A DNA stretch of 64,000 nucleotides from assembly GCF_006345805.1 (NCBI RefSeq), contig NC_043004.1, positions 99,696,001 through 99,760,000 of the forward strand, read 5' to 3'. Origin of the DNA: Octopus sinensis. Its lineage: Eukaryota. Position numbers and translations under genes: made by a program. The stretch's first letter is position 1. Each line of letters opens with the position of its first letter. The notes under the pieces are model-generated. The model did no database searches, was not told the origin of the DNA, and saw nothing but the letters and a program-made list of their open reading frames with translations. Shown piece after piece: positions 4,427-59,819 of this stretch.

Positions 4427-4630
4427 AAAGTAAATCCAAACAAGAAACCACAAAAAACCACAACAACGCGAGGAAGTGGAACAAATATAGTATTATTGGA
4501 CGCTCAGGAAAGAAGGAGAATTTAAAGTTTCGAGCGGAGCTCTTCGTCAGAAACATAGGAACATAAGAAAATCCAGAGAAGGAAGACAGAAAAGGAAACA
4601 ATTTCGCCAATGGTACACACGAGGTCACAT
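4427..4630 (-). mobile_element. Short non-autonomous element in (TA)n with degenerate HHR-like motif
   Basis: Inverted homologue of 6452-6678, flanked by (TA)n. The minus strand at 4520-4554 reads GTTT CTGACGA A GAGC TCC GCTC GAAA CTTT AAAT. Confidence 0.6.
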
Positions 4631-27375: not shown

Positions 27376-27856
27376 ATTTTGAAAAATTTTTGGTGAAAAT
27401 TTTGGAAAAGTTTTTGAGTAAAATTTTCTTTGAAAATTTTCGAAAAGTTTTTGGGTAAAATTGTTGGTGAAAATTTTCGAAAAATTTTTGGGTAAAATAT
27501 TCGGTGAAAATTTTCGAAAAATTTTTGGGTAAAATATTCCGTGACAATATTCGAAAACTTTTGGGGGAAAATTTTCGAAAAATTTTTGGGCAAAATTTTT
27601 GGTGAAAATTTCTGTAAAATTTTCGGGTAAAATTTTCGACAAAAATTTTTGGATAAAATCTTTGGTGAAAATTTTCGAAAAATTTTTGGATAAAATTTTC
27701 GAAAAATTTTTTGGGAAAATTTTTGGTGAAAATTTCCGAAAAATTTTTGGGTAAAATTTTAGACAAAAATTTTCGAAAAATTTTTGGGTAAAATTTTCGG
27801 TGAAAATTTACAGAAAACTTTTTCGGTGAAAATTTTCGAAAAATTTTTGGTGAAGT
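27376..27856. repeat. A/T-tract minisatellite, ~37-bp irregular unit GAAAATTTTCGAAAAATTTTTGGGTAAAATTTTCGGT
   Basis: Read directly; each unit contains self-complementary AAAATTTT segments. Confidence 0.9.
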
Positions 27857-27920: not shown

Positions 27921-30411
27921 ATACTAAGCAATAAGGGTTCAGCAACGAATTGCCTTACCCATACCGAATTTAGAAATAGCAGTCAAAGGGTTATAGCTTT
28001 CTTCTTACTAAAAAGGGAGATCTCAGTAAAAACAGCAATTGGAAGGCTGACACAAACAGGTAAGAGAGAGAAATGAATTAACCGCAATCTATAAACATTT
28101 TTAAAAAGTTATCCACGGACGTACGTTTCGAAATCAAGTTTTAGGAAAGCATAAGAATTAAAATTTTAAATATTAAATAATTCTATCTACCGAAACTTCT
28201 TTCTCTTTCAGCGGGAATACTATAATCATAAATGATTATATATTGAATTTTGAGATACTAGGAGGTACCAACTCAACTCACTATCAGAGCGAGCTTAGAA
28301 TCTCAACTAGTATCACCGAATTCAAATTTGTGAATGAAACGATTGTGTCAACAGCCCCTTCCCACCGCGTGTAGCCAAAACAAATGAGCTGTAGTCATCT
28401 ACTAGATAAAATATGTTATCCGTAATAATGAAGGGTGAAATTAATTAATTTGGAATAATTATCAATTACACCAGTAGTCTTCGGCATGTAAAAGCTCATT
28501 TGAGGAAAATTTAAGTAATACTAAGCAATAAGGGTTCAGCAACGAATTGCCTTAACCACATAACCGAATTTAGAAATAGCAGTCAAAGGGTTATAGCTAT
28601 TTCTTTACTAAAAAAGGGAGATCTCAGTTAAAAACAGCAATTGGAAGGCTGACACAAACAGTAAGAGAGAATGAATTAACCGCAATCTATCAAACATTTT
28701 TAAAAAGTTATCCACGGACGTACGTTTCGAAATCAAGTTTTAGGAAAGCATAAGAATTAAAATATTAAATATTAATATTCTATCTTACCGAAACTTCTTT
28801 TCTCTTCAGCGTGGAATACTATAATCATAAATGATTATATATTGAATTTTGAGATACTAGAGGTACCAACTCCAACTCACTATCAGAGCGAGCTAGAATC
28901 CTCAACTAGTATCACCGAATTCAAATTTGTGAATGAAACGATTGTGTCAACAGCCCCTTCCCACCGCGTGTAGCCAAAACAAGATGCTGTAGTCATCTAC
29001 TGAGATAAAATATGGTTATCCGTAATAATGAAGGGTGAAATAATTAATTTGGAATAATTATCAATTACACCAAGTAGTCTTCGGCATGTAAAAGCCTCAT
29101 TTAGGAAAATTAAGTAATACTAAGCAATAAGGGTTCAGCAACGAATTGCCTTACCACATACCGAATTTAGAAATAGCAGTCAAAGGGTTATAGCTATTTC
29201 TTTACTAAAAAGGGAGATCTCAGTAAAAACAGCAATTGGAAGGCTGACACAAACAGGTAAGAGAGAATGAATTAACCGCAATCTATCAAACATTTTTAAA
29301 AAGTTATCCACGGACGTACGTTTCGAATCAAGTTTTAGGAAAGCATAAGAATTAAAATATTAAATATTAAATAATTCTATCTTACCGAAACTTCTTTTCT
29401 CTTCAGCGTGGAATACTATAATCATAAATGATTATATATTGAATTTTGAGATACTAGGAGGTACCAACTCAACTCACTATCAGAGCGAGCTAGAATCCTC
29501 AACTAGTATCACCGAATTCAAATTTGTGAATGAAACGATTGTGTCAACAGCCCCTTCCCACCCGCGTGTAGCCAAAACAAGATGCTGTATGTAGTCATCT
29601 ACTGAGATAAATATGGTTATCCGTAATAATGAAGGGTGAAATTAATTAATTTGGAATAATTATCAATTACACCAAGTAGTCTTCGGCATGTAAAAGCCTC
29701 ATTTGAGGAAAATTTAAGTAATACTAAGCAATAAGGGTTCAGCAACGAATTGCCTTACCACATACCGAATTTAGAAATAGCAGTCAAAGGGTTATAGCTA
29801 TTTCTTCTACTAAAAAGGGAGATCTCAGTAAAAACAGCAATTGGAAGGCTGACACAAACAGGTAAGAGAGAATGAATTAACCGCAATCTATCAAACATTT
29901 TTAAAAAGTTATCCACGGACGTACGTTTCGAAATCAAGTTTTAGGAAAGCATAAGAATTAAAATATTAAATATTAATAATTCTATCTTACCGAACTTCTT
30001 TTCTCTTCAGCGTGGAATACTATAATCATAAATGATTATATATTGAATTTTGAGATACTAGGAGGTACCAACTCAACTCACTATCAGAGCGAGCTAGAAT
30101 CCTCAACTAGTATCACCGAATTCAAATTTGTGAATGAAACGATTGTGTCAACAGCCCCTTCCCACCCGCGTGTAGCCAAAACAAGATGCTGTAGTCATCT
30201 ACTGAGATAAAATATGGTTATCCGTAATAATGAAGGGTGAAATTAATTAATTTGGAATAATTATCAATTACACCAAGTAGTCTTCGGCATGTAAAAGCCT
30301 CATTTGAGGAAAATTTAAGTAATACTAAGCAATAAGGGTTCAGCAACGAATTGCCTTACCACATACCGAATTTAGAAATAGCAGTCAAAGGGTTATAGCT
30401 ATTTCTTCTAC
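27921..30411 (-). mobile_element. Tandem array of ~600-bp non-coding units (4 full + ~90 bp), each with a hammerhead ribozyme; retrozyme-like or non-autonomous PLE
   Basis: Unit starts at 27922, 28519, 29118, 29722 and 30323. (TA)n on both flanks. Units differ mainly by 1-nt indels. Confidence 0.85.
28711..28815 (-). ncRNA. Type I hammerhead ribozyme with ~74-nt extended stem II (other copies at 28112-28216, 29307-29412, 29912-30016)
   Basis: Minus strand: TCCACG [CTGAAGA] GAAA...TTTC [GAAA] CGTACG [TC] CGTGGA. Perfect 6-bp stem I, palindromic stem III, GUC triplet; predicted cut between 28717 and 28716. Confidence 0.85.
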
Positions 30412-39785: not shown

Positions 39786-40159
39786 ATAAATGTATGATAG
39801 TGAATCATGCAAACACACACACACACACACACATACATACATACATACATACATACATACATACATACATACATACATACATACATACATGCATACATAC
39901 ATACATACGTACATACATATATATACATATATATATATATTATATATATATTATATATATATATATATTATATATATATAATAATAAATATTAGGGAATA
40001 TATCCAAATTTACAGGGAAAAAAAATCAGATTTAGGATTAAATCCAATTTTATAGTAAAATATTATAAAATATTATTTGAGACAAAACCACTATTTTGCA
40101 AAACAAACAAGGAAAGACTTAATCAATATATAAAATTTAATAAATAGTCAAAAAAACCG

Positions 40160-40202
40160 CCACTACAATCGTTTCTTGTCTTGATCGACAATCTTCAGGT
40201 GG
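40160..40202 (-). ncRNA. Minimal type I hammerhead ribozyme (left arm of the PLE)
   Basis: Exact reverse complement of 46934-46976. Confidence 0.8.
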
Positions 40203-42490
40203 ACTTCCAATCTAAAAAATCAAAATTTTAAAATATAAAAATAATACTTTTAAATAATTAAAGTATAAATGAAAAAATATAAGTATATAATCCATATATA
40301 ACCTATATATAATCCATATCGAAAATATAGACTAATTACCACGAATTCCCTAAAAAAAACCATGATAAAACAAAACTCTTAAAAAACATATAACGATAAA
40401 ATCTCCCTTTGCTAAACTCTATAACAAACCTATAAAGTAAACCCCTAACCTAAACATTCACACACAAATACACACACGTAAACCACAGACTCACGACTTA
40501 TACACATACCTATACTAACTTATAACCTCAATATACACCAAAACCCACTCCCTCCCCACACAGACAAATTAACACATACATTCAAAAACCTAAATAACAA
40601 ACCCATATACACATTCACACACAAAACACACACTCACACGCAAAACACTCACACACAAAAGATACATATACTCCCTCACATATACGCCTATACATACTCA
40701 CTAAACTCGACATATACAACAATACTTACACACCCACAAAAAAACATTATATACATTATGAGCTTTAACTCACCTTAGCATCTCTAACAAACAACTTACA
40801 GTAACCCAATCCCATTCTCTATGCCTACCTCACTACTACACTATTCCATTCACATTCCAAGCAACGCTAGTCCACCACCCGGTTATTCACGTGGCAAACA
40901 CGAACACCACTCAAAAATTATGAATGAAACAATGTAAAAAAATAACCAACACCTAAAATAGACAAAATACCACGAATTACCTAAAAAAAACCATGATAAA
41001 CCAAAACTCATAAAAGCATATAACGATAAAATCTCCCTTTGCTAAACCCTATAACAAACTTATATAGCAATCCCCCTAACCTAAACATTCACACACAAAA
41101 AACCCACACGTAAACCACAGACCCAAGACTTATACACAAACCTATACTAACTTATAAACCTCAATATACACCAAAAACCACTCCCTCCCCACACAGACAA
41201 ATTAACACATACATCCCAAATCCTAAATAACAAACCCAAATACACATTCACACACAAAACACACACACACGCAAAAACACACACACACAACAGATACATA
41301 TGCTCCCTCACATATACGCATATACATACTCACTAAAACTCGATATATACAACAATATTTACACCCACACTCATACAGATAAATAAATTAATTATACAAT
41401 TAAAAACTCACAACCAATCTCATATACATAAACACTCTTATGAAAACAACAATAAATACATCGTAATTAACCAGAATATCAAAAATAACATTATGACATA
41501 AGGATAAATCAAATACATACTTACAATTCAGTTACAAATTATGAAGTGAAATTAGATTATTAGCCGTTAAAAAACCAAACAAAATTACGTTACCATGGAA
41601 ATAACTAATGTAAAAAAAGAATACGCGCCATAGAAAGTAAACGTCATTCATAGTATGAATGGAGAAATATAATAAATGGAACTAAAAACTATATCCACGT
41701 AGCAAACCAACGCTACTTAAAAAAAATTTATTATGAATGGATTCTTTAAAAACTATCATGAAAAATCAATTATATACATTTATGAGCTTTAGCTCACCCT
41801 AGCAACTCTAACAAACAACTTACAGTAACCCATACTCAATGCCTACCTCATTACCACCCTAATCCATTCACAATTCCAAGCAACACTAGTCCACCACCCG
41901 GTTACAATTCCCAACTCTACCCATTCATTCACATTTCAACGACGTTCCCTTCAACAACTCTACATATAAGCCTCAACATATACACCGGAGATACACTTAC
42001 ACATCCGTGCGGATGGGTGAGAGTATACATTAAGTGTAGTGATGGGGCTCCCATTTCTAATCACATTTGTACCTGTGTGGTAGTCTCCATGTGTATATTC
42101 ACGCACGGGTATAAATACAGGGGGTACACGCTCACTTCATTTACGTGTACCCCTCACATGTACATATGCATACTATTTTGGCTCGATATATGCAACAATG
42201 TAATCGCGCCCGTATGTGTGAGCATTCACTGGTTGTGCAATTCACCCATCTGGGTGTGATTATGTGTAAACTTATCACTGTGGAGGTCGAGCTTGATACG
42301 TATATATTAGTGTGTATTAGGGGTTGTACGTACTAATTATGTTCTTGTGCTTCACGCACTTGCGTCCATGTATGGAAGAATATATTGGGATTACTATGTA
42401 GGTGTAAATAGGGTATGGGGGAGTTTTGTCATTGTATGGGTGTGGGTTTCATTTGTGATGGTGGTTAGTTGGTGATTATTAGTATGTTCT

Positions 42491-44058
42491 AGGAATGATA
42501 CTAGAGATTGTTTTGATATACCTATGGGAGCACCAGATTCTGCACAGGCTACTGATTTAGTAGGTATTTTTCTTTTATCTGAACTCCAATTAGAAAATCT
42601 TAAGATAGAGGGTGGTTTATATAGAGACGATCTTCTACTAGTTACAAAGAATTGTACTAATAGGAATCTAGAAGTATATAAGAAAAAACTATATAGTTTC
42701 TTTAAAAGATATGGTTTACGTATTACTATATATAAGGAGAATTATAATGTTAATTATTTAGATGTTAATTTTAATCTTATTACAGGTAAAAGACAACCAT
42801 ATCATAAACTTAATGAGAACCTTAGATATATAAATGTTAATAGTAATCACCCATTTTCTATTAAAAAATCGTTGATTAATAATATAAGTAAACGTATTTC
42901 ATTACTCTCTTATGATATAGAGATTTTTAATAAACATGCTAATTATTATAATGAGGCCCTTAGAGGGGCAGGTTATAATAAGAATATTAAATTTTATAAT
43001 ATTAGCGATAATGATTTAAATGATAATTTTCGAGATACTTCTAATAATAATTATAATTTTGTTACGTTTAGTGGTAAAAATAATAGATATTATAAAAAAA
43101 ATAATAAAAATGATAAAAATATAAATAAGAATAATAATAATAATAAATATAATAATAATAATATAAATAAGAATAATATAAATAAAAATAAATTTAATAA
43201 TTATTATAATAATTATATTGATAAATTTAATAATATTAATAATTCCTTAAATGCTGTACATAGATATAATTCTGATAATAATTTTAATAAAATAAAGAAT
43301 TATAAATATATTTATAATAATGATAATAATAATAAGGTTAATAAGAATAAAATTTGGTTAATAGTTCCTTATGGAGATCAAGTTAAAACGAATATTATTA
43401 AAGAGATTTTAGATGTTATAGAACTATTTATTAGAGATAATCGTAAATATAGAAACATTTTTTCTCTTTAATAATTTTGGAGTTGGTTACTCTACCACTA
43501 ATAATGTTGGTAACATTATTTCTTCATTTAATAAATATAAACTGAATAATTTTTATAAAAAGAAATTATTTGATAATAATATTAATAATGATAAGACTTA
43601 TATTAATTGTACATGTAGAGATAAATCTAATTGTATATTAAATAATAATTGTGATATTAACGATGTAGTGTATAAATGTATAGTTACATTACATGATAAT
43701 AACTTTAAGAATAATAATTACACAAAAGCGGTTTATATAGGTTCTACTTCTTCAAAAATAAAACTAAGAATTGCACAACATATGAATTCTTTTAAAATAA
43801 AAACTTAATCAACTCAACCGGACTTAGTAAGTATATTTGGAGTCTTAAATCACTAAATATTAATTATAGTTTAATATGGGAAATAATTTGTAAAACTAAA
43901 TCATATAATATAGGAGCTAATTGTTGTTATTTATGCTCTAATGAGTTTAAAGAAATTTTATTTTATAAGTATGATAATTTACTTAATACTGGGGAGGAGC
44001 GCAAATAAAATGTAGACACAAGTTACTTTACTTATATAATAAGTTTCATGATAAATAG
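42491..44058 (+). pseudogene. PLE reverse transcriptase (C-terminal half) + Asn-rich linker + GIY-YIG endonuclease, with about three 1-nt frameshifts
   Basis: FDIPMGAPDSAQATDLVG, GGLYRDDLL, VNYLDVNFNL, YINVNSNHP (ORF 42524-43471). A shifted frame gives CTCRDKSNCILNNNC, VVYKCIV...VYIGSTS...LRIAQH, then LSKYIWSLK, CCYLC..E, LLN, KCRH, with stop TAG at 44056-44058. Confidence 0.9.
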
Positions 44059-46933
44059 CAATAATAGTTCCCTTTTAGGTTATTTTAGTTTAGTTTAAAT
44101 TAGTTTAGATGATATATTTTTGGTTATGTTGTCTAGGATTTAATTATAGTTAGTCTTTATTGATATTTCTTTGTTTTAATTAGTTCATTTTTAATGTATA
44201 TTAATTTAGCAGTTTATGGTACGTTAAAACTTTAATAATTTATATTAGATTTTTTTATTTTTTATTTTTATTTTTATTTATTTTATTTTATTATGTATTT
44301 TTATTTTGCATTTGTTATATGTATTTTGAGGATATATTTATATGTTTTTGGGTGTTATTTAGTGGTGTTTTTATTGAGTTTTGTATGTATGTGTGAATGT
44401 TTAAGATCCCTTTGTTTTTTGTTTTTTATTTGCATGTTGAATTGACAGATTTTATTTGGGTATTGTCTTTTATAATAAAGTACACACCCATAACAATTAT
44501 AAGTGCCCACTTCATTCGTTGTACTTGGGTTTGCATGTGAGCCTCAGCATATGCACCTAACGGCCACTCCAGCCCCACATGGATAAATAAACACATACAT
44601 CCCCTAAAAATAAAAAAAAAAATAAAAAAAAAAAAAAAAGCCCTAATATACAGAACATACTAATAATCACCAACTAACCACCATCACAAATGAAACCCAC
44701 ACCCATACAATGACAAAACTCCCCCATACCCTATTTACACCTACATAGTAATCCCAATATATTCTTCCATACATGGACGCAAGTGCGTGAAGCACAAGAA
44801 CATAATAGTACGTACAACCCCTAATACACACTAATATATACGTATCAAGCTCGACCTCCACAGTGATAAGTTTACACATAATCACACCCAGATGGGTGAA
44901 TTGCACAACCAGTGAATGCTCACACATACGGGCGCGATTACATTGTTGCATATATCGAGCCAAAATAGTATGCATATGTACATGTGAGGGGTACACGTAA
45001 ATGAAGTGAGCGTGTACCCCCTGTATTTATACCCGTGCGTGAATATACACATGGAGACTACCACACAGGTACAAATGTGATTAGAAATGGGAGCCCCATC
45101 ACTACACTTAATGTATACTCTCACCCATCCGCACGGATGTGTAAGTGTATCTCCGGGTATATGTTGAGGCTTATATGTAGAGTTGTTGAAGGGAACGTCG
45201 TTGAAATGTGAATGAATGGGTAGAGTTGGGAATTGTAACCGGGTGGTGGACTAGTGTTGCTTGGAATTGTGAATGGATTAGGGTGGTAATGAGGTAGGCA
45301 TTGAGTATGGGTTACTGTAAGTTGTTTGTTAGAGTTGCTAGGGTGAGCTAAAGCTCATAAATGTATATAATTGATTTTTCATGATAGTTTTTAAAGAATC
45401 CATTCATAATAAATTTTTTTTAAGTAGCGTTGGTTTGCTACGTGGATATAGTTTTTAGTTCCATTTATTATATTTCTCCATTCATACTATGAATGACGTT
45501 TACTTTCTATGGCGCGTATTCTTTTTTTACATTAGTTATTTCCATGGTAACGTAATTTTGTTTGGTTTTTTAACGGCTAATAATCTAATTTCACTTCATA
45601 ATTTGTAACTGAATTGTAAGTATGTATTTGATTTATCCTTATGTCATAATGTTATTTTTGATATTCTGGTTAATTACGATGTATTTATTGTTGTTTTCAT
45701 AAGAGTGTTTATGTATATGAGATTGGTTGTGAGTTTTTAATTGTATAATTAATTTATTTATCTGTATGAGTGTGGGTGTAAATATTGTTGTATATATCGA
45801 GTTTTAGTGAGTATGTATATGCGTATATGTGAGGGAGCATATGTATCTGTTGTGTGTGTGTGTTTTGCGTGTGTGTGTGTTTGTGTGTGAATGTGTATTT
45901 GGGTTTGTTATTTAGGATTTGGGATGTATGTGTTAATTTGTCTGTGTGGGGAGGAGTGGTTTTTGGTGTATATTGAGGTTTATAAGTTAGTATAGGTTTG
46001 TGTATAAGTCTTGGGTCTGTGGTTTACGTGTGGGTTTTTTGTGTGTGAATGTTTAGGTTAGGGGGATTGCTATATAAGTTTGTTATAGGGTTTAGCAAAG
46101 GGAGATTTTATCGTTATATGCTTTTATGAGTTTTGGTTTATCATGGTTTTTTTTAGGTAATTCGTGGTATATTTGTCTATTTTAGGTGTTGGTTATTTTT
46201 TTACATTGTTTCATTCATAATTTTTGAGTGGTGTTCGTTTTGCCACGTGAATAACCGGGTGGTGGACTAGCGTTGCTTGGAATGTGAATGGAATAGTGTA
46301 GTAGTGAGGTAGGCATAGAGAATGGGATTGGGTTACTGTAAGTTGTTTGTTAGAGATGCTAAGGTGAGTTAAAGCTCATAAATGTATATAATGTTTTTTG
46401 TGGGTGTGTAAGTATTGTTGTATATGTCGAGTTTAGTGAGTATGTATAGGCGTATATGTGAGGGAGTATATGTATCTTTTGTGTGTGAGTGTTTTGCGTG
46501 TGAGTGTGTGTTTTGTGTGTGAATGTGTATATGGGTTTGTTATTTAGGTTTTGGAATGTATGTGTTAATTTGTCTGTGTGGGGAGGGAGTGGGTTTTGGT
46601 GTATATTGAGGTTTATAAGTTAGTATAGGTATGTGTATAAGTCGTGAGTCTGTGGTTTACGTGTGTGTATTTGTGTGTGAATGTTTAGGTTAGGGGTTTA
46701 CTTTATAGGTTTGTTATAGAGTTTAGCAAAGGGAGATTTTATCGTTATATGTTTTTAAGAGTTTTGTTTTATCATGGTTTTTTTAGGGAATTCGTGGTAA
46801 TTAGTCTATATTTTCGATATGGATTATATATAGGTTATATATGGATTATATACTTATATTTTTTCATTTATACTTTAATTATTTAAAAGTATTATTTTTA
46901 TATTTTAAAATTTTGATTTTTTAGATTGGAAGT

Positions 46934-46976
46934 CCACCTGAAGATTGTCGATCAAGACAAGAAACGATTGTAGTGG
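46934..46976 (+). ncRNA. Minimal type I hammerhead ribozyme (right arm of the PLE)
   Basis: CCAC [CTGAAGA] TTGTC-gatcaa-GACAA [GAAA] CGATTG [TA] GTGG. GUA triplet, predicted cut after 46972. Confidence 0.8.
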
Positions 46977-47062
46977 CGGTTTTTTTGACTATTTATTAAA
47001 TTTTATGTATTGATTAAGTCTTTCCTTGTTTGTTTTGCAAAATAGTGGTTTTGTCTCAAATA

Positions 47063-47103
<41 letters not shown>

Positions 47104-56150: not shown

Positions 56151-56195
<45 letters not shown>

Positions 56196-56199
<4 letters not shown>

Positions 56200-59100
56200 G
56201 CAATTAAGGACAACTACTTAATAAGGAAAACTTAACAAGAAATTGTAGGTAGATAGCGTAAAAACCTCATAAGAGAAAAAATTTCGAAAATAATTATTTC
56301 TTATTGAACATATTAATTTATATATAGAGGGCATATACATACATGCCAGGAGGCATTCTACATACACGCCATACGCTAAGAGGGACAATCAGTCATTTCT
56401 ACCAAAAATATTACTAATCCCACCGAATGCATTTTTCAAAGAAAGACATTTAAAAATATATAGACCTGTATCACAGTGATTTCATACTTACGTAATCATC
56501 AGCAGGCCTGAATATACTATAAATAAACAACGACCCTGCTTCGCTTAAGCCGATCAGCTAACTGATCAACATCAACGAAGCACATGGGTAGGTTTATATA
56601 TACTATATCCGGATGAATGGCAAACTTTTACGAATTGCATTTCGGGAGAGGAAAAGTTTTTTCGGAATAAAATTTAGCAATTAAGGACAACTACTTAATA
56701 AGGAAAACTTAACAAGAAATTGTCAGGTAGATAGCGTAAAAACCTCATAAGAGAAAAAATTCGAAAATAATTATTTCTTATTGAACATATTAATTTAATA
56801 TAGAGGCATTATACATACATGCCAGGAGGCATTCTACATACACGCCATACGCTAGAGGGACAATCAGTCATTTCTACCAAAAATATTACTAATCCCACCG
56901 AATGCAATTTTTCAAAGAAAGACATTTAAAAATATATAGACCTGTATCACAGGATTTCATACTTACGTAATCATCAGCAGGCCTGAATATACTATAAATA
57001 AACAACGACCCTGCTTCGCTTAAGCCGATCAGCTACTGATCAACATCAACGAAGCACATGGGGGGGTTTATATATACTAATCCGGATGAATGGCAAACTT
57101 TTACGAATTGCATTTCGGGAGAGGAAAAGTTTTTTCGGAATAAAAATTTAGCAATTAAGGACAACTACTTAATAAGGAAAACTTAACAAGAAATTGTCAG
57201 GTAGATAGCGTAAAAACCTCATAAGAGAAAAAATTTCGAAAATAATTATTTCTTATTGAACATATTAATTTATATATAGAGGGCATTATACATACATGCA
57301 GGAGGCATTCTACATACACGCCATACGCTAAGAGGGACAATCAGTCATTTCTACCAAAAATATTACTAATCCCACCGAATGCAATTTTTCAAAGAAAGAC
57401 ATTAAAAATATATAGACCTGTATCACAGGATTTCATACTTACGTAATCATCAGCAGGCCTGAATATACTATAAAAAACAACGACCCTGCTTCGCTTAAGC
57501 CGATCAGCTAACTGATCAACATCAACGAAGCACATGGGTAGGTTTATATATACTATATCCGGATGAATGGCAAACTTTTACGAATTGCATTTCGGGAGAG
57601 GAAAAGTTTTTTCGGAATAAAAATTTAGCAATTAAGGACAACTACTTAATAAGGAAAACTTAACAAGAAATTGTCAGGTAGATAGCGTAAAAACCTCATA
57701 AGAGAAAAAATTTCGAAAATAATTATTTCTTATTGAACATATTAATTTATATATAGAGGGCATTATACATACATGCCAGAGGCATTTACATACACGCCAT
57801 ACGCTAAGAGGGACAATCAGTCATTTCTACCAAAAATATTACTAATCCACCGAATGCAATTTTTCAAAGAAAGACATTTAAAAATATATAGACCTGTATC
57901 ACAGTGATTTCATACTTACGTAATCATCAGCAGGCCTGACAATTTCTTGTTAAGTTTTCCTTATTAAGTAGGTCTTAATTGCTAAATTTTTATTCCGAAA
58001 AAACTTTTCCTCTCCCGAAATGCAATTCGTAAAAGTTTGCCATTCATCCGGATATAGTATATATAAACCTACCATGTGCTTCGTTGATGTTGATCAGTTA
58101 GCTGATCGGCTTAGCGAAGCAGGGTCGTTGTTTATTTATAGTATATTCAGGCTGCTGATGATTACGTAAGTATGAAATTACTGTGATACAGGTCTATATA
58201 TTTTTAAATGTCTTTCTTTGAAAAATTGCATTCGGTGGGATTAGTAATATTTTTGGTAGAAATGAAGATTGTCCCTCTTAGCGTATGGCGTGTATGTAGA
58301 ATGCCTCCTGGCATGTATGTATAATGCCCTCTATATATAAATTAATATGTTCAATAAGAAATAATTATTTTCGAAATTTTTTCTCTTATGAGGTTTTTAC
58401 GCTATCTACCTGACAATTTCTTGTTAAGTTTTCCTTATAAGTAGTTGTCCTTAATTGCAAATTTTTATTCCGAAAAAACTTTTCCTCTCCCGAAATGCAA
58501 TTCGTAAAAGTTTGCCATTCATCCGGATATAGTAATATAAAACCTACCATGTGCTTCGTTGATGTTGATCAGTTAGCTGATCGGCTTAAGCGAAGCAGGG
58601 TCGTTGTTTATTTATAGTATATTCAGGGCTGCTGATGATTACGTAGTATGAAAATCACTGTGATACAGGTCTATATATTTTTAAATGTCTTTCTTTGAAA
58701 AATTGCATTCGGTGGGATTAGTAATATTTTTGGTAGAAATGACTGATTGTCCCTCTTAGCGTATGGCGTGTATGTAGAATGCCTCCTGGCATGTATGTAT
58801 AATGCCCTCTATATATAAATTAATATGTTCAATAAGAAATAATTATTTTCGAAATTTTTTCTCTTATGAGGTTTTTACGCTATCTACCTGACAATTTCTT
58901 GTTAAGTTTTCCTTATAAGTAGTTGTTCCTTAATTGCTAAATTTTTATTCCGAAAAAACTTTTCCTCTCCCGAAATGCAATTCGTAAAAGTTTGCCATTC
59001 ATCCGGATATAGTATATAAAACCTACCATGTGCTTCGTTGATGTTGATCAGTTAGCTGATCGGCTTAAGCGAAGCAGGGTCGTTGTTTATTATAGTATAT

Positions 59101-59774
59101 TCAGGCCTGCTGATGATTACGTAAGTATGAAATCACTGTGATACAGGTCTATATATTTTTAAATGTCTTCTTTGAAAAATTGCATTCGGTGGATTGGGTA
59201 GTAATTTTTGGTAGAAATGACTGATTGTCCCTCTTAGCGTATGGCGTGTATGTAGAATGCCTCCTGGCATGTATGTATAATGCCCTCTATTATAAATTAA
59301 TATGTTCAATAAGAAATATTATTTTCGAAATTTTTTCTCTTATGAGGTTTTTACGCTATCTACCTGACAATTTCTTGTTAAGTTTTCCTTATTAAGTAGT
59401 TGTCCTTAATTGCTAAATTTTTATTCCGAAAAAACTTTTCCTCTCCCGAAATGCAATTCGTAAAAGTTTGCCATTCATCCGGATATAGTATATATAAACC
59501 TACCCATGTGCTTCGTTGATGTGATCAGTTAGCTGATCGCTTAAGCGAAGCAGGGTCGTTGTTTATTTATAGTATATTCAGGCCTGCTGATGATTACGTA
59601 AGTATGAAATACTGTGTGATACAGGTCTATATATTTTTAAATGTCTTTCTTTGAAAAATGCATTCTGCATTCTGGGGGTGGGATAGTAATATTTTTGGTA
59701 GAAATGACTGATTGTCCCTCTTAGCGTATGGCGTGTATGTAGAATGCCTCCTGGCATGTATGTATAATGCCCTC

Positions 59775-59784
<10 letters not shown>
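56196..59784. mobile_element. Array of ~476-bp non-coding hammerhead-bearing units: ~3.65 units one way, then ~3.9 units inverted
   Basis: Left unit starts at 56196, 56673, 57147, 57624. Inversion junction at CCTGA 57935-57939. Right unit starts at 57935, 58409, 58887, 59363. (TA)n on both flanks. Confidence 0.88.
59104..59149 (+). ncRNA. Minimal type I hammerhead ribozyme, representative of 8 copies (+ also near 58150, 58626, 59581; - near 56463, 56939, 57415, 57891)
   Basis: GGCCTG [CTGATGA] T-TAC-gtaa-GTA-T [GAAA] TCAC-t-GTGA [TA] CAGGTC. AUA triplet, palindromic stem III, U-U at the base of stem II. Confidence 0.75.

Positions 59785-59819
<35 letters not shown>

Follow-up and report, generated by a model that had tools for sequence, protein, structure and literature searches.

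The window, i.e. the whole 64 000-nucleotide stretch of Octopus sinensis DNA that was analysed, contains a non-coding tandem array between TA repeats, with two arms in opposite orientations. Tandem-repeat analysis of the window delimited the first of these at 56195–57939 (period 477, 3.7 copies), and the sequence at 57935–59785 is its reverse complement with 96% identity. A pattern search located four hammerhead cores on the minus strand (56502, 56977, 57453 and 57930) and four on the plus strand (58155, 58632, 59110 and 59587). The left arm (56196–57939; RNA-sense strand minus) comprises 3.68 units and the right arm (57935–59785; plus) 3.88, close to the ~3.65 and ~3.9 units counted in a first-pass annotation of this DNA. 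The unit length of 476 bp given there applies to the window, where units measure 476–478 nt, but not to the family, in which the commonest unit is 481 nt long (55 of 242 units). Positions within the unit refer to an actual 481-nt copy, numbered from the first base downstream of the predicted hammerhead cut.

The arms meet head-to-head and have in common the five bases CCTGA at 57935–57939, exactly where the annotation had placed the join; chance joins share at least 5 bases in <1% of random trials, and the junction 27-mer is single copy in the assembly. If CCTGA is assigned to the left arm, this arm ends 2 nt before helix I of a predicted type I hammerhead (57890–57937, minus strand; predicted cut between 57897 and 57896), in keeping with the distance of 3 nt from stem I first reported. 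The 5′ ends correspond to unit positions 439 (left arm) and 222 (right arm). The outer 3′ ends also fall at different points of the unit, as had been seen from the letters, and both run into remnants of the (TA)n target (56154–56196, 21.5 copies, on the left; 59785–59815, delimited by sequence and arm-end analysis, on the right): the left arm ends at unit ~276, hereafter site B, and the right arm at unit ~154, hereafter site A. The ~120 nt between the two sites (the 'tail') are found at the left outer end only (56196–56316, minus strand). Hairpins are predicted ~10 nt 5′ of site B (approximately 56210–56248, minus strand; circular fold and three-family alignment fold) and ~10 nt 5′ of site A (approximately 59727–59772, plus strand; predicted fold). 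Another hairpin, one per unit, lies upstream of the hammerhead (59031–59076, plus strand); its annotated halves, TGCTTCG..GATCAG and CTGATC..CGAAGCA around ctaa, indeed fold strongly (z = −3.5).

No stop-free frame of 100 aa was found in the array, and tblastn with two RT + GIY-YIG proteins gave no match anywhere in the window. The array thus has no ORF for the telomerase-like RT and GIY-YIG endonuclease of an autonomous Penelope-like element. Its GC content is 0.32–0.34, below the 45–50% used as a retrozyme criterion.

Other repeats lie elsewhere in the window. At 27921–30411, between TA repeats, is a second tandem array in a single orientation (unit of ~598 bp, 4.2 copies, 96–97% identical); no canonical hammerhead core was found in it by pattern search, and it is probably another retrozyme-like family. 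Beside it (27376–27850) lies an AT-rich degenerate satellite of 12/25/37-bp repeats. An element of ~7 kb at 40060–47077 has 2.4-kb terminal inverted repeats (99.4% identical) and internal 420-bp repeats; five internal frames gave no Pfam match.

The hammerhead motif and its sister families

Each unit carries one predicted type I hammerhead with conserved core and helices. In the intact copy at 59103–59150 (plus strand), helix I, CUGAUGA, a 3-bp helix II based on U.U, GAAA and a near-palindromic helix III can be recognised, with the predicted cut after AUA (59143/59144). Only 3 of the 8 hammerheads in the window are perfect. The small differences in the remaining 5 look like long-read errors, since a T missing at 57428 is restored in short-read contigs. 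Across the family the motif is identical in 205 of 242 units. An Rfam scan gave no hammerhead match at E ≤ 1, the only matches being to low-complexity miRNAs.

Two sister families with 68–74% identity (L132–L143, ~490 nt; L144–L155, ~475 nt) have long helix II extensions and the same two end sites, A and B; a 23-nt marker of the second has 611 matches in the genome. A minimal sister-family insertion, consisting of ~20 nt of inverted A end and ~60 nt of B end, was noticed inside TA repeats (L123:8865–8935).

In an alignment of seven sequences from the three families, 5 of the 6 pairs of helix I and 3 of the 4 pairs of helix II change on both sides. Pairing is kept in 92.8% of alignment cells, a value reached by 0 of 500 shuffles of these related rows. 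The predicted hammerhead therefore covaries across the three sister families, its fold being kept by compensatory change. At its base, helix II has U.U in four sequences, G-C in two and A-U in one. The axolotl hammerhead HHR_Amex2 likewise has U.U at this position (PMC7229834; bioRxiv 10.64898/2026.07.22.740005), and there the U.U is reported to lower cleavage but not to abolish it: the axolotl monomer is 22% cleaved, and dimers do better.

Helix III is invariant save for 1–2 central bases. The C and G flanking these are invariant in 7/7 sequences, yet they cannot pair in a monomer, and the predicted intermolecular duplex has −10.1 kcal/mol, while the isolated hairpin is predicted to be unstable. 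Cleavage as a dimer, which had been suggested from the palindromic stem III, is therefore likely on these predictions. The catalytic fold (−9.1 kcal/mol) lies above the predicted minimum fold (−11.1 kcal/mol), and 8 of 9 frog retrozyme dimers showed no cleavage in the data reported in bioRxiv 10.64898/2026.07.22.740005; we count both against the explanation favoured below.

Two further hammerhead-like repeats were noticed. A short dispersed repeat (window 4528–4550, minus strand, and L124:8147) with a CUGACGA ... GAAA core, a 4-bp helix II and no clear helix I or III is a candidate minimal or rearranged hammerhead. A small family in TA repeats (L096, minus strand, ~175; L088:3780–3925) has a hammerhead-like core starting CCGACGA and an odd palindrome as helix III.

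Fixed outer ends and free inner junctions

An exact search of the 2.72-Gb assembly with the 38-nt hammerhead gave 1302 matches, as against 0 for the control. Of these matches, the first 100 belong to 28 loci, so that the genome may, as a rough estimate, contain some 350 loci. We analysed 62 stretches, namely the window, 39 loci from the best-scoring matches and 22 further loci of contig 1; the latter, together with 6 loci already sampled, form a position-ordered set of 28 that covers the first 149 Mb of this contig. Inverted arrays were found at 20/28 loci of the position-ordered chromosome-1 set, and 13 of the 62 stretches contain a single-arm (plain) array, ending at A in 7 cases and at B in 6. 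Arrays reach 16–18 units. Head-to-tail units of a few hundred bases are thus present at many loci, as is characteristic of retrozymes, and the window locus is an ordinary member of the family.

The outer ends obey a simple rule. All but one of the 116 arm 3′ ends (115) map to site A (~152–156) or site B (~274–281), where they run into TA repeats, and this clustering identifies the outer ends as two fixed start sites. The sites are ~120 nt apart, and these 120 nt are present at one end only. An A arm is joined to a B arm at 50 of 51 junctions, the exception having a truncated arm, and neither AA nor BB combinations occur; of eight further stretches, six again showed A + B, one contained an array that extended beyond the sequence examined and another lacked an adjacent junction. 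The annotation had looked to other loci for permuted ends, which the two fixed sites do not support, and had missed the tail rule known from Penelope-type elements. An inverted 5′-truncated copy, a tail at one end and a microsatellite or AT-rich target are all present; a target-site duplication, if there is one, would be hidden within the (TA)n. The element is a non-LTR retrozyme, made of non-coding tandem units with a hammerhead, that bears the marks of Penelope-type insertion, and the one-ended ~120-nt stretch, the inverted 5′-truncated copy and the (TA)n target constitute a Penelope-type footprint on it.

Fold prediction places both sites ~10 nt 3′ of a hairpin, and A as well as B leads into UAAAUU. 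Some two-sided changes are seen in the alignment for the A hairpin; the B hairpin appears in one consensus fold and is absent from the other, in which this region is poorly aligned. The two hairpins may be two copies of one binding element.

The inner ends behave differently. All 51 adjacent opposite-strand junctions, from 49 loci among the 62 stretches, are 5′-to-5′ (head-to-head). Inner ends were refined with locus-matched references at 48 loci; L061 was left out, as were the second copies at L031 and L070, each of which holds the whole insertion twice. At 28 of the 48 junctions there is no insert, and 18 of these 28 share 2–7 bases, against 18% expected (P = 1e-7). The other 20 have inserts of 1–25 nt; 6 of the 12 inserts of at least 6 nt match unit sequence entirely, and some of the other inserts may be sequencing errors. 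These figures uphold the view taken in the annotation that two multimeric copies, laid down from opposite sides of one (TA)n site, were joined by microhomology.

Inner ends span the whole unit, leaning towards the half that contains the hairpin and hammerhead (KS P = 0.005; deciles P = 0.08). The inversion beside the ribozyme, which the annotation had treated as special, did not generalise: of the 96 inner ends, 10 are found no more than 10 nt from the window breakpoint, against 4.2 expected (P = 0.009), and junctions near the ribozyme number 9 of 48. Since the sample was chosen for holding the hammerhead, this weak excess points to a mild stopping preference at most. A first cluster at unit 433–446 had seemed to tie the breakpoint to the ribozyme; it proved to be partly a subfamily-mismatch artefact and shrank with locus-matched references. 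A cut linear monomer as template was likewise rejected, as inner ends do not pile up at the cut site (3/96 versus 4.0 expected).

In twin priming of L1, two primers from one break give two cDNAs that are joined by microhomology, with the 5′ part inverted, and one arm has its inner end next to the outer end of its partner. All of these properties but the last have their counterpart here. The inner-beside-outer pattern occurs at only 3 and 1 of 48 junctions, against 3.1 expected for each, and the second start site is fixed here; twin priming of the L1 type was therefore rejected.

An inversion could also arise if one nascent strand folded back and primed itself, as proposed from palindromic junctions for Penelope elements of rotifers (PMC3846280). 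Near mirror joins, with both inner ends within 4 nt, are in fact more frequent than expected (4 of 48 junctions versus ~1), and fold-back may be a minor route. The remaining 44 of 48 junctions, that of the window included, are not mirror joins; at the window the inner ends at 439 and 222 are offset by 217 nt, which excludes fold-back there, and the constant pairing of A with B at the outer ends would be left unexplained. We regard self-priming as a very improbable origin of the inversions in general.

Even less credit is due to the idea that the window junction is an assembly artefact derived from a fold-back chimeric long read. The units do contain uncorrected indels of the long-read type (mean of 2.8 deleted columns per unit), and the contigs of four runs compared with the locus neither bridge it nor show the empty site. 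A fold-back read would give mirror arms and flanks, whereas here the inner ends, outer ends and flanks all differ. More than 50 loci follow the A + B rule, joints at which the unit switches strand occur at other positions in short-read contigs from two other runs, and the uniqueness of the junction 27-mer points the same way.

The RNA template

Units differ by 0.60% within an arm, by 0.67% between the arms of a locus and by 1.74% between loci. At 22 of 23 loci the two arms agree throughout a set of 20 marker sites, as compared with 60 of 506 cross-locus pairs, which bears out the proposal of the annotation that both arms had a common template. At L057 one substitution is present in all 8 full units of both arms. 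It is fixed in no other array of the assembly and occurs elsewhere in the genome only in single units at three loci, on other backgrounds; the donor could be a homogeneous array on an unassembled haplotype. Two variants were considered as candidate private ones: 357A>G is common to three loci, marks a small lineage and counts against the circle, and 170A>G is also found on different haplotypes in single units at three further loci, none of which is a donor. A-to-I editing was also rejected as a source of locus variants, sense A>G and T>C being about equal by eye.

Of 337 passages across the cut site, 334 are intact, so there is no sign of jumping between cut monomers. The monomer is predicted to fold well as a circle (z = −5.5), helix I closing the cut. 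The identity of arm haplotypes, the L057 variant, the clean cut site and the circular fold together favour a template that was a single monomer, copied repeatedly and most simply circular. Between the lengths of the two arms there is no correlation (rho = −0.002), which indicates that the two cDNAs did not run in step and is counted against the favoured explanation.

Long arrays are haplotype mosaics at L038, L040, L065 and L188 and uniform at L034, L044 and L059. The four mosaics argue against one circle for all arrays and call for template switches, later duplication or polishing errors. The 13-unit array L038 (contig 1, 143.65 Mb) has the haplotype order a a′ a b b a a′ a b b b b, which reflects either a five-unit duplication or a multimeric template. 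These mosaics would be accommodated if, with priming at the same two sites, the RNA copied were linear and uncut, produced by read-through transcription of a donor array whose unit order the arms inherit. Possible donors exist in the arrays of 16–18 units, the U.U at helix II makes for a weak hammerhead design (compare the 22% monomer cleavage in axolotl), and unprocessed RNA is the main substrate of the anole element in the reported assays (PMC11167929). We nevertheless consider a linear template unlikely, though it deserves serious attention: to become fixed in all units on either side of the junction, the L057 variant would need to pass through a bottleneck of a single unit, arrays copied linearly can only become shorter, and the hammerhead fold has been kept by compensatory change.

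Alternatively, a short Penelope-type insertion of about one unit with an inverted piece could have grown later in place by unequal crossing-over or slippage. Such growth is proposed for vertebrate retrozymes in a recent preprint (bioRxiv 10.64898/2026.07.22.740005), and local duplications do exist, as in the doubled insertions of L031 and L070 and the repeated five-unit pattern of L038. It would have to account for arms that are usually both multimeric, that run in fractional units from a fixed outer to a free inner end and that have the same haplotype on either side of the inversion, and an arm of less than one unit cannot by itself seed an array of full units. We judge growth in place improbable.

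Candidate partner enzymes and proposed mode of insertion

Intact ORFs of 781 and 775 aa encoding RT + GIY-YIG were found in (TA)n within the genome. The 781-aa family (L117–L121) has two 3′ ends ~35 nt apart, with no recognisable hammerhead near the end; the resemblance of this end to the A-to-B region of the unit reaches only z ~3. In the 775-aa family, which has a minimal hammerhead, also with U.U at helix II, inverted copies stop 24 nt or more before the end of the main arm. A first look yielded 5029 candidates. Blastn and nhmmer detected no significant homology between the unit and the ends of Penelope-like families at the 40 loci examined among 147 GIY-YIG matches listed, and the best local alignments reached z ~3–4 in 30 comparisons of AT-rich DNA. 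The tail of ~120 nt is 3–4 times as long as the published 30–40 bp and the 24–35 nt of the two autonomous families here. Both the tail length and the outcome of the partner search weigh against the favoured explanation.

The family resembles metazoan non-LTR retrozymes, as these are described in the portions of PMC7229834 and bioRxiv 10.64898/2026.07.22.740005 available to us, in being dispersed, low in GC, non-coding and tandem, with one type I hammerhead per unit, in the stable self-paired circular fold and in the proposal of a Penelope-like partner. The 481-nt unit exceeds the 170–400 nt of the former source and lies inside the 51–972 bp of the latter. Cleavage and circles, demonstrated in those papers, are predicted here from genome sequence. 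The same portions describe no inversions, fixed ends or tail (the preprint text at hand has 0 occurrences of 'tail' and 0 of 'junction'). A search of a limited literature for retrozyme arrays with a tail or an inversion led to the cited papers alone, and a prior description may exist.

For Penelope-type elements, bioRxiv 10.1101/2021.04.23.441226 and PMC3846280 report an inverted 5′-truncated copy, a one-ended tail of usually 30–40 bp and a (TA)n bias. Endonuclease-positive members share with our family partial tandems, these three marks, 5′-junction microhomology and a hammerhead in the repeat. Unlike them, the present family has no RT/endonuclease ORF, its tail is ~120 nt long, both arms are long multimers and the junctions are mostly not palindromic.

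A purified Penelope-like protein (Poseidon from Anolis carolinensis), as reported in PMC11167929, cuts and extends both strands and starts at two internal sites bounding the tail, and a dimer is predicted. The likeness extends to start sites downstream of the hammerhead, the use of both target strands and an AT-rich target. In vitro, Poseidon uses unprocessed RNA, its hammerhead is dispensable and no strand difference in start site is seen, whereas genomic products here always pair A with B; its start sites are not homologous to the target, whereas both sites here hold a TA-like stretch. The use of unprocessed RNA, the dispensable hammerhead and the lack of a strand difference are also counted against the favoured explanation.

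On balance, we favour with a probability of about 0.6 the explanation that the window array is a young insertion, in which a borrowed Penelope-like RT/GIY-YIG enzyme, starting on either side of a (TA)n break, copied a single RNA that was probably circular, all in one event. An array would be transcribed, adjacent hammerheads would pair via helix III and cut out monomers, and a host ligase would close these into circles that, having a single hammerhead, would resist re-cutting. The enzyme, likely a dimer, would nick both (TA)n strands, one cDNA starting at site A and its counterpart at site B. Both starts would be located ~10 nt 3′ of a hairpin, in a UAAAUU-like stretch of which a few U/A bases would pair with the TA primer. 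Each cDNA would circle the template a variable number of times, and end-joining repair of the free cDNA ends would produce the head-to-head junction; a plain array, as in 13/62 stretches, would result if one cDNA were kept alone.

The origin of the tails and inversions of Penelope-like elements is stated as open in bioRxiv 10.1101/2021.04.23.441226, and for retrozymes movement as circles with a Penelope-like partner has been proposed. We tentatively put forward a broader and more doubtful idea, that a Penelope-type RT dimer binds a single circular RNA through two similar elements (hairpin, ~10 nt, UAAAUU) and has no choice but to pass one of them to each strand of the broken (TA)n. If correct, it would explain the tail and inverted copy of all Penelope-like elements, would make tail length a property of the RNA (35 nt in the autonomous element, 120 nt here) and would provide genomic proof that animal retrozymes move by rolling reverse transcription of circles. 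What the octopus family offers is hundreds of young non-coding insertions that follow a near-absolute rule, one arm per start site and both from the same RNA haplotype. The template, at 481 nt, is short enough to be used in the in vitro assay that already exists, so that the two proposed mechanisms become directly testable, and the value of these elements lies in the strict A + B rule and the long tail, through which the mechanism can be probed.
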